Shown here piece after piece: positions 7,677-61,442 of a stretch of DNA of 64,000 bases. The DNA lies in assembly GCA_041855505.1 (NCBI GenBank), contig JBHAEI010000011.1:15452-79451 (forward strand). Direction: 5' to 3'. Every line of letters begins with the position of its first letter. Position 1 is the stretch's first letter. The notes under the pieces were generated by a model that was given only the letters and a program-made list of their open reading frames with translations, ran no database searches and was not told the DNA's origin. Origin of the DNA: Prevotella sp. (lineage in GTDB: Bacteria; Bacteroidota; Bacteroidia; Bacteroidales; Bacteroidaceae). A program made the translations under genes and the position numbers.

Positions 7677-7764
7677 TAAAAGGTGCCCTTTTGCCGAGCA
7701 AAAGGGCACCTTTTTCATTGTAAAAGACGGTCTTTAGCCAAGGAATAGGTGGCCTTTAGCAAAA
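7677..7764. repeat. 22-bp-period quasi-palindromic array A (4 units)
   Basis: TAAAAGGTGCCCTTTTGCCGAG / CAAAAGGGCACCTTTTTCATTG / TAAAAGACGGTCTTTAGCCAAG / GAATAGGTGGCCTTTAGCAAAA. Units 1-2 form a perfect 16-bp stem with a CCGAG loop. Confidence 0.8.
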
Positions 7765-7885
7765 TAGAGATAATGTGGTATATCCCCAAGCCCGGTTCCT
7801 TACTCATACTTTTTTAACCAAACACTTGGTGCATATTACTTTTTTGTATAACTTTACATCATCATCTTGTTAAATATAAAAGGCT

Positions 7886-15717: not shown

Positions 15718-15805
15718 CAAAAGATGGCCTTTTACCGAGTAAAAGGCCATCTTTTTCATTGTAAAAGGGCACATATAGCTAAGCAATCTGCCACATATTG
15801 CTGAG
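15718..15805. repeat. 22-bp-period array B (4 units, last two degenerate)
   Basis: CAAAAGATGGCCTTTTACCGAG / TAAAAGGCCATCTTTTTCATTG / TAAAAGGGCACATATAGCTAAG / CAATCTGCCACATATTGCTGAG. Perfect 16-bp stem with a CCGAG loop. Confidence 0.8.
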
Positions 15806-15836
15806 CAGTATCTGCGCCCCTTAAAATAAAGGGATT

Positions 15837-29136: not shown

Positions 29137-29224
29137 TAAAACATGCTCTTTTGGAGACTAAATAGGCATCTTTAGCATGGTAAAAGAGCCTCTTTTACAG
29201 CGTAAAACATGCCCTTTTTTAAGT
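29137..29224. repeat. 22-bp-period array C (4 units)
   Basis: TAAAACATGCTCTTTTGGAGAC / TAAATAGGCATCTTTAGCATGG / TAAAAGAGCCTCTTTTACAGCG / TAAAACATGCCCTTTTTTAAGT. Confidence 0.78.
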
Positions 29225-29420
29225 CGTTGTCAGTCAAATGATTAGAAAAGGGTGGAGATGTTGCCGGGTAAGCCGATTGTTTCTACTATTTGGATGAGGT
29301 AAAAAGTATAGAGAATAAAAGATTGTTAATACTTGCTGCGAGGATAATTCTTTTTGTTAATTATAGCTAACAGCTCAGTAAAAGGGGATGATGGTATAAA
29401 TAGAATTATCAAAATATCAG

Positions 29421-41394: not shown

Positions 41395-41662
41395 TGTTGT
41401 TGAATATTATGGTTTATAGTGCAAACTTACGAATTTAATATGACATAGAAATTCAAATATCAGATATTTTGTTATATTGGATTTGTGTATTAAAAGGGAT
41501 GATATTTCCGATGAGCTAAATCTATTTGGTAGGTAATTATTCTGCATAATATTTGTAAAATATAATACAAATCGCATAATTCTTTTGATATATAATAATA
41601 AATTGCTTATATATTTGCGTATATTAGTAGATATAGTTATATTTGCCAAAAATTGAAAGCTT

Positions 41663-43924
41663 ATGAGTTTAGATGTTGAATTGTTGAGAAAGTTCTATGC
41701 AGGGTATGAACAGAAGTTGAGTAATGTAAGAAAAGTTTTGCGGCGTCCGCTTACTTATGCCGAAAAAGTACTATACACTCATTTATATGATCCGGCAGCG
41801 ATGAAAGACTATTCCCGTGGTAATAGCTATGTTGATTTTCGCCCGGATCGTGTTGCTATGCAGGATGCTACAGCGCAAATGGCTCTCTTGCAATTCATCA
41901 ATGCCGGAAAAGATCGTGTTGCTGTGCCTACTACGATTCATTGCGATCATCTCATCAAAGCTGATAACGGTGCAAAGGACGACCTTGCCAATGCTGTTAA
42001 AACCAATCATGAAGTATATTCTTTTCTTCGTTCTGTCGCAGCAAAGTTCCATATAGGTTTCTGGGGACCGGGTTCAGGTATTATCCATCAGGTTGTTTTG
42101 GAGAACTATGCTTTCCCCGGAGGTATGTTGATTGGGACAGATTCGCATACTCCCAATGCCGGCGGATTGGGTATGATAGGTATTGGAGTAGGGGGAGCCG
42201 ATGCTGTAGATGTGCTGACCAATCAACCTTGGGAACTTAAAATGCCCCATATTATAGGTGTACATCTCACAGGAAAGCTATCGGGCTGGGCAGCTCCTAA
42301 AGATGTTATATTAAAAATTCTGGGGTTGCTTACAGTGAAAGGTGGTACGAATGCTATTTTGGAGTATTTCGGAGAAGGCGTAAAAAGCATATCGGTTACG
42401 GGTAGAGCTACTATTTGCAATATGGGAGCAGAGCTGGGAGCTACCTGCTCCTTATTCCCATACGACGATGTTACCGATGAATATTTGCGCAAGACCAATC
42501 GGGACGATGTGGCCGATATGGCACAAAAAGTAGCCAAGGAACTGGCAGCCGACGAGGAAATCACTTTGCAGTATGCACAATATTATGATCAGATAATAGA
42601 GGTGGACCTTTCAGACTTAGAGCCTTATTTGAATGGCCCGTTTACTCCCGATGCTGCAACACCGGTAAAAAGAATGAAGGAAGTCGCAGCAAAAGAGGGC
42701 TTCCCCTTGGATATGGAAGTTGGCTTGATAGGAAGTTGTACCAATTCATCTTATGAAGATATCGCCCGTGCTGCCTCAATAGCTCGACAAGTGAAGGATA
42801 AAAAGTTGGAGGTGAAAGCCCAACTGATTATTAACCCGGGCTCAGAACAGATAAGATACACAGCAGCAAGAGATGGGTTACTTGGCGATTTAGAGGCCAT
42901 AGGTGGGGTTGTGATGACCAATGCGTGTGGCCCTTGTATAGGTCAGTGGCATAGACATACAGATGATAATGAACGAAGGAATTCTATCGTTACGTCATTT
43001 AACCGTAATTTCCGGCGTCGTGCCGATGGAAATCCAAATACGTACGCTTTCATCGGGTCGCCGGAACTAACTGTAGCACTGACTATAGCAGGGCAATTAG
43101 ACTTTAACCCTGTAACGGATTATCTTACTAATAAAGATGGTGAGCAGGTGAAACTGGACGAGCCTACGGGAAACATCTATCCGCCTAAAGGATTTGCCGT
43201 AGAAGATAAACGGTTTATAGCACCGACCACATCGGCTAAAAACGAGCCGATAGCAATTGATCCCAAGTCGGAGAGATTGCAGCTTTTACAACCGTTCGAG
43301 GCATGGGATGGCAATGATTTCAAGGAACTTCCATTACTGATTAAAGTAAAAGGAAAATGTACAACAGACCATATCTCGATGGCTGGTCCGTGGCTTCGCT
43401 ACAGAGGGCATCTTGAGAATATATCGAATAACTTGTTGATGGGGGCTGTAAATGCCTTCAATGGTGAGGCTAATAAGGTAAAGAGTCTGTTGTCGGGTAC
43501 TTATGCAGAGGTTTCTACTGTAGCAAAAGAATATAAAAACGCCCATATAGGCTCGGTGGTTATAGCAGAAGATAACTACGGAGAAGGCTCCAGCCGAGAG
43601 CATGCTGCGATGGAACCGCGCTTTTTGAATGTGAAAGCTATTATTGTTAAGAGCTTTGCAAGAATTCATGAAACAAATCTAAAGAAGCAGGGAGTACTGG
43701 CTTTGACCTTTAAAAATAAGGATGACTACGACAAAGTGCAGGAGAACGACAAAGTTTCCATTAATGGATTAAATGCTTTTGCTCCGGGTAAAACGTTGTC
43801 GGTAGCCTTGCAGCATATCGATGGAAGCGTGGAAAATATTGAGGTAGAGCATAGTTATAATGATATACAAATCGAGTGGTTTAAGGCAGGATCGGCGTTG
43901 AACTATAATAAGAGAAAGGGTTAG
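41663..43924 (+). CDS. acnA: Aconitate hydratase (mitochondrial-type)
   Basis: [33 protein letters not shown] and TTDHIS motifs. Confidence 0.95.
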
Positions 43925-48513: not shown

Positions 48514-48591
48514 GAAGCTGTTGTCCCGATTCGGAAAGGGAAGTTCGGGTCGGGATATTATAACAGATATACTGATTGGAAGTTATTTTTA

Positions 48592-48803
48592 TTTGCTGTC
48601 ATTTTTAATAATTCATATAAACAGCTGATAAATAGAGACTTGTAGATACTGTTTTAACAATGGTATGATAGCACAAGTACAAAAATCAATGGTAGAAGAA
48701 TTATAAGAGACTTGTGGAAATTGCTGTCATACCCTCACGTGTATTTTTGTCATAACCCCATGTTTACCAGCATTTTAAAGGAACTGTTAAAAATGACAGC
48801 AAA
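48592..48803. repeat. 212-bp element bounded by a perfect 17-bp inverted repeat (MITE-like)
   Basis: TTTGCTGTCATTTTTAA at 48592-48608 and its exact reverse complement at 48787-48803; an internal third TTGCTGTCAT at 48721. Confidence 0.65.
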
Positions 48804-48826
48804 AGAAATTAAAATTAAATTCTTTG

Positions 48827-48936
48827 TAATATATATCCTTTTACCAAATAAAATATGTCCTTTTGCCGAATAAAATATGTCCTTTTGCCGAATAAAACAT
48901 GCTCTTTTACTTTGTAAAACATGCTTGTTTATGCAG
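48827..48936. repeat. 22-bp-period array D (5 units)
   Basis: TAATATATATCCTTTTACCAAA / TAAAATATGTCCTTTTGCCGAA x2 (exact) / TAAAACATGCTCTTTTACTTTG / TAAAACATGCTTGTTTATGCAG. Confidence 0.85.
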
Positions 48937-49035
48937 CAATACATGCCGAAAACTTAACCGGTTTTTCTTTATTCCAGTCTCTATTATAAGCAGTATGCTG
49001 TGCAGACGAGATACAGAAATTTGCCTAAAACATGG

Positions 49036-58406: not shown

Positions 58407-58752
58407 ATTTTTAATTTTAGGTGTAAAGTTACAAAAAATAAGTTTGAATATAAATAGCACAGATACATTTTCTAAATTCATGCCGAAATCTTTTTTAAAC
58501 AGCACCGATTAAAAAGGATATTTACTGTATATCGATAGGAATATGTGGTACTACAAATCTTCGATAGCGGTGGTATATAGCTGTCTTGATGGCAGAATAC
58601 TTTTTCTTATTGTGGCGACAGCAGTGTAACGAACGGTGCTTTGGGTTTTTATTGTTTGTTATATTGCACATTAATAATTATCTTTGCAGCGGTATTCCTT
58701 GTATTGGAATGGCGGAAAAATCTTTATGATGGATATTAATTCGAGAGTATAA

Positions 58753-59001
58753 ATGGATAAAGTTATCAATACGACAAATATGTGTTCGCACCTACAGCGA
58801 AAATTATTTGCCAAAGACGGCGTGTATCACCATCTGTGGACGGCGATACAGAATGATGAGGAACTGACGGCTGTAGTTCGTACACGCCAGTTACATATTT
58901 ATCGTAATGGCAAGAAGGTACTGATATTGGCTGGTAAGGCCGCACCTAAGATTATCAGAGAGGATGCCGTCTGTGCAATGGTTAGGCAACTGCAAGAATA
59001 G
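58753..59001 (+). CDS. Small hypothetical protein (82 aa)
   Basis: ATG start, a TATCTTTG box at 58679-58686 and no overlap with other genes. Confidence 0.65.
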   Translation: MDKVINTTNMCSHLQRKLFAKDGVYHHLWTAIQNDEELTAVVRTRQLHIYRNGKKVLILAGKAAPKIIREDAVCAMVRQLQE

Positions 59002-59113
59002 AGATATACAGGAATGGTAAGGATTGAATCTTCTTTACTCTATAGCAGGGTATCTTGTTATTGACAGAAATACCATCCTTGGCTATACCTAAGATAATAT
59101 ATTACTGAAGATT

Positions 59114-59209
59114 TTATTTTTATTGTATTGCTGTCAGCTTTAACACTTCGGGTAAACATCTATTAAATAATATCTTATGAAGATAAATGAGATGATGATA
59201 TGACAGCAA
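59114..59209. repeat. Second, degenerate TGCTGTCA inverted-repeat element
   Basis: TTGCTGTCA (59128) ... TGACAGCAA (59201). The left part aligns with 48583-48633. Confidence 0.5.
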
Positions 59210-59252
59210 CTTCTTGAAATCTTGTACTCTTCTTCTATAACAGTCGTCAATG

Positions 59253-59288
59253 TTTCGCAGCCATGCCATTTTTCGCAGCCATGCCATT
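59253..59288. repeat. Exact 18-bp tandem duplication
   Basis: TTTCGCAGCCATGCCATT twice. Confidence 0.9.
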
Positions 59289-59369
59289 ATGAAAAATATG
59301 CCAGAATCTATATTCAGAGATTTGTGTGAAAAGTGATGGTATGAGGAATTAAAAGTAAAGTGTTGCTAA

Positions 59370-61442
59370 TTATGTGAATTTTTCGATAAACTCCTTTTCC
59401 GAAAGAATGGGAATAGCCAGCTCCTTTGCTTTTTTGTTTTTTCCCGAAGTGCTCTCCACATCATTGTTAATAAGGTAGTTCGTACTCTTTGACACACTTC
59501 CCGTTACCTTTCCGCCTTGACTTTCAATGTATGCCTTTAGCTCGTTCCTGTTCTTATAATGATGTACATCGCCTGTGATAACGAAGGTTATCCCCTCGCA
59601 GAGACTTCCCTTGGGCTCGGCAGATTGCTGTGTTACTTTTAGCTCTTGCAGCAGATGGGATAGCTGAGCGTAGTTGCTCTCTTCTCTCATCCAATGCACA
59701 AAGGTGGCGCTTTTCTCCGGACCTATACCCGGAATGGATGCGAAGACATCCTCGGCAGAAAGGTTTTCGGTGTCGGTTGTGCCGGTTTCTTCGGCGAAAA
59801 GAGAGGGCTCTCCGATGTTTTGGGTAGCTGATGTTCCGACAGGGAGGCCTTCGCGGCTCTTGGAGATGAGTTCTTCTAATGGATAAGCTGCCAGCAATCG
59901 TGTGCAGACATCCTTTCCTACCAATGGGATATTCAAGGCAAAGAGCAGGCGATGCGCCTCGACATTGCGCGATTTCTCGATGGCTGCCAGCAATTTCTCC
60001 ACGCTCTTTACTCCGAAGCCCTCCATAACCTTCAGCTCGTCGGCATGACTGGCCAAATGGAAAAGGTCGGCATATTCCGAAACCCATCCCAAGTTGATGA
60101 ATTTCTGAACGGTTTGCTCCGATAAGCCATCAATGTTTACTCCCTCTTTCGATACAAAACGGGCAAAACGCTTTAATTGTTTGGCCGGGCAATGCTTATT
60201 GGTGCAGTGGAGTGTCTTTGTTCCGCTGGCCTCGCTTTCCATGACGTTTGTCGGGGCATGGCACACGGGGCATACTGTCGGTATGGTGAAGTTTCCCAGT
60301 CGTTCGGTAACCCCGATTACCTTGGGAATAATCTTATTAGCCTTAATGACCGATATTTTTGTTCCTTTACCGCCAATGCCCAGCCGTTCGCATTCGGAGA
60401 TGTTGCAAAGGCTGGCACGTTTTACCGTGGTACCTTCGAGTTCAACGGGTTTAAATACAGCCACAGGCGAGATAGTGGAGGTAGCGCACGACCACTCTAT
60501 ATACTCCAACTCGGTCGCGGCACTCTCATCCTGCCACTTGAAAGCATAGCCAGCTCTTGTGGCATGATGGCCTGTAACAGAGCCCGTTGCGGCATAATCG
60601 GTATCGTCGAAGGTAATTACCAGTCCATCTACCGGGAAGGGTTGTTGCTTCTCCGTCTTGCTTTGTCCGGTTACACGGTCGCTCCATCGTGCAATGACCG
60701 CATGGATATTTTCCGGATTAGGCTCTTCGATAACGTTGCGTTCTATGGTGTTGAAGCCCAGTTTATCGAGAAAATCCATTCGCTTTCCCCATGAAACAAT
60801 ATCCTGCTCGGTATGTACCAAGGTAAAGGGAATCCACTGAAGGTGGCGTAGCTTCACCTCATTGATGTCTTTCAAGGTAAGTGAGCCGGAAGCTAAATTG
60901 CGTGGATTGGCATATTCCTCTTCCGATTCCATATTGAATTGTTCAAAATCCCGATAGCTGATAACAGCCTCTCCACGGATAACAAGATGTCCCTTTTCAT
61001 TGATTTCGGGCAGAATTCCATCTATGGCCGGCGCAAGGTGGGTGATGTTTGTACCGATGTGGCCATTTCCTCGGGTAACCACCTTGGTCAGTTTTCCGTT
61101 ATCGTAGGTTACGACGAGTGTCAGTCCGTCCAGCTTCCACGACAGCCAAACAGGCTTTCCTTCCGCCCATTTCACCAAGTCGGCCTCGCTTTTGGTCTTG
61201 GCAAGCGACAACGCCGGGTACTCATGCTCCTCTTTCTGTCCCTTTACATCGTCGGCACTTACGTTCATTGTCGGCGAGTCGGGCAGTACTTTGCCCAGTT
61301 CCTCCTCTAAAGTTTTCAGTTTATCGAAAGCCTTATCCCACTCATAGTCAGTCATTAGCTCGCCCTTACCATTGTAGTAGGCATCCGATGCCTCATTGAG
61401 TTGCCGCACAAGCAACTTCATTTCATCTATTCTATTATCCAT
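59370..61442 (-). CDS. ligA: NAD-dependent DNA ligase
   Basis: LNEASDAYY, KLDG, RGEA, RNLASG, AFKW, C4 zinc finger, HhH motifs and BRCT (FVITG). Confidence 0.95.
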   Translation of the reverse strand: MDNRIDEMKLLVRQLNEASDAYYNGKGELMTDYEWDKAFDKLKTLEEELGKVLPDSPTMNVSADDVKGQKEEHEYPALSLAKTKSEADLVKWAEGKPVWLSWKLDGLTLVVTYDNGKLTKVVTRGNGHIGTNITHLAPAIDGILPEINEKGHLVIRGEAVISYRDFEQFNMESEEEYANPRNLASGSLTLKDINEVKLRHLQWIPFTLVHTEQDIVSWGKRMDFLDKLGFNTIERNVIEEPNPENIHAVIARWSDRVTGQSKTEKQQPFPVDGLVITFDDTDYAATGSVTGHHATRAGYAFKWQDESAATELEYIEWSCATSTISPVAVFKPVELEGTTVKRASLCNISECERLGIGGKGTKISVIKANKIIPKVIGVTERLGNFTIPTVCPVCHAPTNVMESEASGTKTLHCTNKHCPAKQLKRFARFVSKEGVNIDGLSEQTVQKFINLGWVSEYADLFHLASHADELKVMEGFGVKSVEKLLAAIEKSRNVEAHRLLFALNIPLVGKDVCTRLLAAYPLEELISKSREGLPVGTSATQNIGEPSLFAEETGTTDTENLSAEDVFASIPGIGPEKSATFVHWMREESNYAQLSHLLQELKVTQQSAEPKGSLCEGITFVITGDVHHYKNRNELKAYIESQGGKVTGSVSKSTNYLINNDVESTSGKNKKAKELAIPILSEKEFIEKFT

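Follow-up and report, generated by a model that had tools for sequence, protein, structure and literature searches.

A short A/T-tract array in Prevotella is probably one copy of a Prevotellaceae-wide intergenic repeat family that includes PINSR

Between convergent genes for a Crp-like regulator and an ABC-F ATPase, the Prevotella DNA analysed here (a stretch of 64 kb, hereafter the window) carries a short tandem array of A- and T-tracts, one of four such arrays, raising the question of what kind of repeat this is and which of its features is maintained. Tandem Repeats Finder reports a period-22 array at 48827-48908 (3.7 copies, 88% matches, score 115) and, placed in register, the array consists of five head-to-tail 22-bp units, all direct (Table 1). 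The unit has an orientation and reads A4, a core of 7 bp (G-N5-C in most cases), T4, and a spacer of 7 bp. In order, the units are AATATATATCCTTTTaccaaat, AAAATATGTCCTTTTgccgaat (twice, identical), AAAACATGCTCTTTTactttgt, and AAAACATGCTTGTTTatgcagc; the first and last are degenerate, while the second and third, at 48850 and 48872, share the sequence AAAATATGTCCTTTTGCCGAAT and are the two exact copies claimed for this locus in the original prediction. The accompanying description of four arrays in the window with a common unit in a strict 22-bp register was also accurate, the same module and register being present at 7678, 15719, and 29138. The 22-bp family is real and lies far beyond chance, because in addition to the period-22 array, the top direct-repeat family in a repeat search of the 64-kb window (69 nt) joins 7678, 15719, 29138, and 48850/48872, and the two-unit pattern AAAAN6CTTTTN7AAAAN6CTTTT occurs seven times against 0.00 expected from 100 dinucleotide shuffles of the window (one-unit pattern, 19 observed against 2.4 expected).

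Table 1. Coordinates of the 22-bp module arrays and of the neighbouring inverted repeat in the window
Feature	Position	Details
Focus array, five units	48828-48937	Unit starts 48828, 48850, 48872, 48894, 48916; each unit A4-N7-T4-N7
Four-unit copy	7678-7765	Units 1 and 2 inverted; perfect hairpin 7678-7714, then T5
Copy with inverted unit pair	15719-15806	Hairpin 15719-15755 and T5, then two degenerate units
Four-unit copy	29138-29225	Mixed orientation
50-nt inverted repeat, left arm	48583-48632	Core TTGCTGTCATTTTTAA; upstream of the focus array
50-nt inverted repeat, right arm	48763-48812	

All four arrays fall outside long ORFs and two of them, at 15719 and 48828, lie between convergent genes, as originally predicted. 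The array neighbours in the window are housekeeping genes, encoding an M48 peptidase and NfeD at 7678 (same strand), a P-type ATPase and cytidylate kinase (Cmk) at 15719 (convergent), a 549-aa protein and ribosomal protein L21 at 29138 (same strand), and the pair named above at 48828, with LepA also among the neighbours. The Crp-like protein beside the focus array has 85–88% identity to proteins of Prevotella amnii, P. pallens, P. scopos, P. falsenii, and P. intermedia, and DNA identical or near-identical to the window is found in metagenomes from the mouth and gut of pigs and cattle. Short repeat-derived ORFs run over the focus array on the minus strand of 48750-48944 (e.g., one of 64 aa with ...FGKRIYITK.../...FIRQKDIFY...), and a 42-aa gene is annotated over the array in a close relative (L131, 10837-10965); short ORFs arising from arrays in this way are probably spurious.

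Several established classes of sequence do not accommodate the arrays. A CRISPR array is ruled out, as the units abut and unique spacers are absent. Plasmid iterons and parC-type arrays are helix-phased runs of 22-bp or 11-bp direct repeats that bind protein cooperatively; plasmid or phage iterons are rejected on gene context, with no rep or par gene adjacent at the four chromosomal loci, and the arrays are further unlike iterons in occupying dispersed chromosomal loci beside housekeeping genes, with dozens of loci per genome. A Bacteroides-type promoter (consensus TTTG-N19-21-TAnnTTTG) was rejected by inspection, as the 22-bp spacing misfits that consensus, and we know of no fit between the array and the CTnDOT att consensus. 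At the gathering threshold of Rfam 15 the sole match in the window is a tRNA, and at E ≤ 5 no match overlaps the arrays.

A second dispersed repeat family lies next to the focus array in the form of 50-nt inverted arms, which are 80% complementary, 130 nt apart, and covered at 5–9x depth in related assemblies. Other copies of this repeat join 48612/48614 straight to 48785, and the window copy therefore appears with ~170 nt of extra loop DNA; in other genomic copies, the stretch matching 48785-48843 continues into the first 22-bp unit. The second repeat recurs in degenerate form at 59128-59210 (TTGCTGTCAGCTTTAA ... GACAGCAA), just after which, at 59253-59288, there is a perfect tandem duplication of the 18-bp TTTCGCAGCCATGCCATT, within a gene-poor stretch of ~860 nt (58505-59370). 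Elsewhere in the window, an AT-rich imperfect repeat of ~30 bp (41544-41617; 2.4 copies, 70% matches) sits just upstream of a 753-aa gene that starts at 41663 and corresponds to an aconitase gene called in L131.

When the two-unit pattern was scanned against one genome per prokaryotic species, at least 120 loci were recovered. Among the 120 matches listed, 62 belong to genomes named Prevotella, Prevotellaceae, Xylanibacter, or Hoylesella, several more, identical in architecture, come from unnamed Bacteroidales bins, and the remainder (Acinetobacter, Vibrio, Firmicutes, others) are single two-unit matches; the non-Bacteroidales matches look like chance or ordinary hairpins. Copies thus exist beyond the window in many Prevotellaceae genomes. 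The predicted abundance genome-wide is supported by these 62 loci and by depth in related assemblies, where the 7678 unit pair is covered at 5–8x baseline (54 versus 10.6, 137 versus 26.6, and 804 versus 105), indicating many more array copies in related genomes. In the viral collection, 12 matches were found in 2.9 million contigs, four of them Prevotella-type, and a metagenome scan with the CCGAG-loop hairpin returned six loci, none from the window species.

Throughout the Prevotellaceae, the arms and the register are constant and the core is lineage-specific (e.g., GACGGCC/GGCCGTC, GGAGTCC, CTGCCAC, GCTATGC, or ACCATAC), with the spacer tending towards GCAAYGC. Four units is the modal array size (49 of the 86 arrays with at least three units, among the matches listed). 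Among the matches listed, neighbouring cores agree at ≥6 of 7 positions as direct copies in 26% of pairs and as inverted copies in 21%, against an estimated chance level of ~0.1%. Based on crude ORF calls for the matches listed, 37 arrays lie between tandem genes, 24 between convergent genes, and eight between divergent genes, and those between tandem genes are mostly closer to the upstream stop codon (26/37), a bias towards gene 3’ ends that could be mere selection against promoter disruption. The potential to form hairpins varies widely across the family, with z from -7.6 to -0.35.

Among the matches listed, a one-sided tail hairpin (GCAAYGCRTTG..TATCAR....GTTRC) follows 21 of 90 arrays and is always confined to one side, compared to 0.7% of random 70-mers. 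An IHF-like motif (WATCAR-N4-TTR) in the tail adjoins 30 of 90 arrays, again among the matches listed, compared to 0.9% of random 70-mers; it was noted in the flanks of seven individually recorded loci and others, and may be a by-product of the tail palindrome. Six non-Prevotella Bacteroidales MAGs carry a variant of the 22-bp module with the spacer T/C-NGGGGTR (e.g., AAAAGTCTAACTTTTTAGGGTG), repeated two to four times and sometimes adjoined by other short direct repeats, which could be iteron-like or represent a sister family. Three Acinetobacter species share the same two-unit match (AAAATACTTTCTTTT..AAAATGATGGCTTTT) at what is apparently one orthologous locus, probably a chance match in conserved DNA that is unrelated to the Prevotella family.

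The literature searched for this module in Prevotella or Segatella yielded only PINSR, an intergenic repeat of 188 bp with 177–184 copies in P. intermedia (Naito et al. 2016, DNA Res 23:11, PMC4755523). By PCR, PINSR was detected only in P. intermedia, P. nigrescens, P. falsenii, and P. disiens; coding capacity, inverted ends, and a known function were all reported as absent, and three-quarters of the sites were common to two strains (PMC4755523). One copy, PINSR_0006 (P. intermedia OMA14, AP014597 83387-83574, within L137), resolves into 58 nt, four perfect 22-bp units (AAAACCTATTGTTTTgcattcc AAAAGCGTAGGTTTTacacggt AAAAGCGGCTGTTTTgcgacgt AAAATAGCCGCTTTTgcaatgc, each A4-N7-T4-N7), and 42 nt, and in P. 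falsenii (L034) a four-unit 22-bp array is flanked by the sites of the PINSR primers (150 bp versus 149 expected). PINSR is thus built on the 22-bp module. The text of the PINSR paper searched here (PMC4755523) mentions neither the 22-bp structure nor a family-wide spread, and the suggestion that the arrays were possibly undescribed is therefore only partly right: a published element is made of four of the same modules, and it is the 22-bp structure and the spread across the family that were not found in the literature searched.

PINSR and the window arrays share a genus, an intergenic location, the absence of coding sequence, a high copy number, and 22-bp units of A4-N7-T4-N7. They differ in that PINSR carries tails of 58 nt and 42 nt, whereas in the window copies the cores are different and unit number and orientation vary. 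The PINSR primers have no match in the window at ≤6 (forward) or ≤3 (reverse) mismatches and blastn-short with a full PINSR copy returned nothing in the window, so that the window copies constitute a sister subfamily and not PINSR itself. Given a module architecture common to both within one genus, we infer that the window copies are homologous to PINSR. PINSR was published as confined to four species, while arrays of the 22-bp module are present in numerous genomes of Prevotella, Xylanibacter, and Hoylesella. In three PINSR copies (L137, 7392-7608 and 17406-17623; L034, 2390-2620), conservation continues ~30 nt past the published left end (GTTTTATAG..GGAAA..AG).

The arms and the cores of the module have evolved at different rates. 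In three orthologous pairs, substitutions were counted at 3/96 arm positions (A4/T4), 17/84 core positions, and 25/84 spacer positions (arms, 3/96, versus core and spacer, 42/168; Fisher p = 1e-6), and in two close pairs at 0/64 arm positions versus 14/112 core and spacer positions (p = 0.002), with flanking intergenic DNA 9–12% diverged. For two PINSR copies in three strains of P. intermedia, the corresponding counts are 0/128 for the arms, 11/224 for core and spacer, 45/518 for the rest of the element, and 69/1330 for the flanks. Across the three orthologous pairs and two PINSR loci, for which arrays were chosen by the intactness of their arms in a single lineage, cores and spacers change at close to the flanking intergenic rate and the arms barely change, an effect of which ascertainment bias can account for at most about half. 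Units 2 and 3 have exchanged places between PINSR copies, so that two nested hairpins become interleaved; this swap, together with direct arrays that are unable to fold, points to a constraint on the phased A/T tracts and not on a single-stranded structure. A wedge model with Bolshoy-type parameters, rough in its values, predicts bends of 60–104 degrees per 110 bp at the four loci (88th–99.7th percentile of 110-bp segments in the window), the lowest at the focus array (60 degrees, 88th percentile). Arm conservation and above-background predicted bending fit the idea that the phasing of the A/T tracts matters.

The number of units changes by whole units, as contigs from four related strains each lack exactly 22 nt at 48847 of the focus locus and L131 has four units compared to five in the window, bearing out the polymorphism between strains for which the original prediction had proposed a check. 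Gain and loss of whole 22-bp units, with the register kept, fits replication slippage. On longer timescales, the 7678 copy is kept in L156 (M48 protein 90% identical), absent in L157 (77%), and represented in L158 (73%) by a degenerate array with its own lineage core at the equivalent place, and the 29138 array has an ortholog in L132 (7374-7483) with conserved flanks. Sites are kept among species at ~90% protein identity and differ in presence at ~75%. The retention in L131, L156, and L132, the absence in L157, and the degenerate array in L158 together indicate that most copies are old and inherited and that turnover occurs at longer distances.

Among the dispersed repeats known from other bacteria, the REP/BIME elements of enterobacteria and pseudomonads show both likenesses and differences. 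REP/BIME are associated with RAYT transposases, the BIME-1/RIP type carries an IHF site, and some copies act as terminators or mRNA stabilisers. Like the arrays, they are extragenic and high in copy number, form clusters of pseudo-palindromes in both orientations with short linkers, and are biased towards 3’ ends; extragenic clusters of alternating orientation are what was found here, and the IHF-like motif in the array flanks recalls the IHF site of E. coli BIME-1/RIP. The arrays are unlike REP/BIME in the strictness of their 22-bp register and in having AT-rich arms where REP/BIME have GC-rich stems. No RAYT was found within 2.5 kb of the arrays at 68 loci, and the 5’ GT[AG]G or CGTC foot of a REP, an imperfect palindrome of 20–40 bp, is missing, the units starting with A4 and ending with T4. 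The description of the arrays as a dispersed intergenic family resembling REP/BIME, in which the arms are conserved, the cores vary, and the register is strict, is supported. BOX elements of Streptococcus pneumoniae and MIRU-type VNTRs are also modular dispersed repeats in which the number of modules varies between copies or strains, but they differ from the arrays in sequence and host, have modules of ~45–53 bp, and lack phased A/T tracts. Within the Bacteroidales, BrickBuilt of Porphyromonas gingivalis (Klein et al. 2015, PMC4596501) is a MITE/minisatellite with a 23-nt unit (AGAYCATARTATCCTCTCRTRTG) that resembles the arrays in being intergenic, with a spacer-less tandem unit of strain-variable number and with leader and tail segments, and differs from them in its IS5-type terminal inverted repeats and its runs of up to 18 or more units (PMC4596501). 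Terminal inverted repeats of the IS5 type were not found at the arrays, and BrickBuilt is no more than an analogue, its unit being unrelated in sequence to the 22-bp module.

Three explanations compete with an inherited family maintained for its phased tracts. If the family consisted mainly of transcription terminators or of hairpins that protect mRNA 3’ ends, the A/T tracts would be the flanks of bidirectional terminators that were duplicated and diverged. In keeping with this, the inverted unit pairs at 7678 and 15719 (AAAAGGTGCCCTTTTGccgagCAAAAGGGCACCTTTTT and AAAAGATGGCCTTTTACcgaGTAAAAGGCCATCTTTTT) form perfect 16–17-bp hairpins followed directly by T5, the arrangement expected of an intrinsic terminator, at 65 nt past the stop codon of the M48 peptidase gene and 47 nt past a stop codon, respectively (z versus shuffles, -3.3 and -5.4), the latter hairpin was flagged as terminator-like, and arrays of the family favour 3’ ends and convergent pairs. 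Against it, the 29138 and 48828 arrays lack a stable hairpin of this kind and show no significant RNA fold (z, -0.45 and -0.35), so that hairpins are a trait of some copies and not of the whole family; moreover, a separate canonical terminator precedes the 29138 array by ~130 nt (rplU follows the array at ~290 nt), conservation extends to the arms of all units instead of only to the final T tract, arrays between divergent genes occur among the matches listed, and the unit order of PINSR can break the nested hairpins. Transcript data have little bearing on the matter, as the window organism is represented by only two low-coverage pig-gut RNA runs, neither spanning an array, and the rumen metatranscriptome contigs on L129, mostly cross-species fragments of a conserved upstream gene, say nothing on termination because they end before the stop codon of that gene. 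Taken as an account of the whole family, terminators are very unlikely. It is highly improbable that the arrays are neutral minisatellites, slippage products without any selected feature: the whole-unit indel between strains and the two identical units are what slippage would leave, but the same module and a four-unit mode are seen repeatedly throughout a bacterial family, the arms change less than cores and flanks, and arrays persist at orthologous sites even where the cores have diverged by ~43%.

The remaining alternative, a selfish element of the REP/BIME or MITE type whose modules or tails would be recognition hairpins or ends for a transposase acting in trans (of the HUH/RAYT kind, or that of an IS partner), whose conserved arms would be the sites of this transposase, and whose function for the host would be incidental, draws on the high copy number, the strictly extragenic location, both unit orientations, the lineage-specific cores, the difference in presence between species, and the enrichment of the one-sided tail hairpin. 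The ends of PINSR are weakly inverted (TGTAAA...TTTACA), this being the only symmetry in a search for IS-type terminal inverted repeats, and the Bacteroidetes possess RAYT subclass 2.6 with atypical REPs (PMC6006769). Yet the published subclass 2.6 REPs are unrelated in sequence to the arrays and none are from Prevotella (PMC6006769), which removes them as a candidate, and the arrays lack a GTAG or CGTC foot. No partner was recovered either: when the ORFs lying up to 2.5 kb from 79 arrays at 68 loci were clustered all against all, no family recurred, and the HUH or tyrosine recombinase gene that the original prediction had proposed searching for was not found near the arrays at these 68 loci. 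The comparison of filled and empty sites (L157 and L158) yielded neither clean boundaries nor a target-site duplication and so does not demonstrate the mobility suggested in the original prediction, most sites are old and common to species, as are three-quarters of PINSR sites to strains, and the direct arrays do not fold. On balance, a selfish element is an unlikely explanation.

The best reading of the arrays is an old, mostly vertically inherited REP/BIME-like repeat, and we assign a probability of roughly 0.6 to the 48828 array being one copy of a Prevotellaceae-wide, non-coding intergenic repeat family, with PINSR as one branch and the phased A/T tracts as the selected feature. A copy of this family is a short array, usually of four 22-bp modules in either orientation, with a one-sided tail hairpin in many species, in which slippage would add or remove whole 22-bp units and so preserve the register. 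The maintained feature would be the A/T tracts spaced 11 bp apart on one face of the helix, a scaffold that may produce intrinsically bent DNA and/or a platform with a two-turn period for a putative abundant DNA-binding protein. The binding platform suggested in the original prediction gains indirect support, but a protein partner was not found near the 68 array-bearing loci. Copies with inverted units, such as those at 7678 and 15719, have an A-tract/hairpin/T-tract structure and should act as bidirectional terminators, while the all-direct 48828 copy cannot fold and, if it acts at all, probably does so only as double-stranded DNA. A more specific proposal, quite unlikely on present evidence, is that the phased A4/T4 scaffold is a selected architectural element of the chromosome, in which bent segments of ~88 bp with a two-turn period, bound cooperatively by a putative abundant DNA-binding protein, would mark transcription units at their 3’ boundaries or insulate them there.

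Prevotella and Segatella are dominant in the gut, rumen, and mouth, and their genome biology is poorly understood. PINSR has been without a known structure or function since 2016, and if it is a branch of a 22-bp-module family in which only the A/T tracts are constrained, the question of its function narrows to bent DNA, a platform, or a terminator. The arrays provide VNTR-like markers that step by 22 bp and account for the small spurious ORFs and the breaks between contigs that recur in assemblies of Prevotella. Should the architectural proposal be true, these genomes would contain dozens to hundreds of such segments, and PINSR and its relatives would be a nucleoid-organising system and not junk or a transposon relic.
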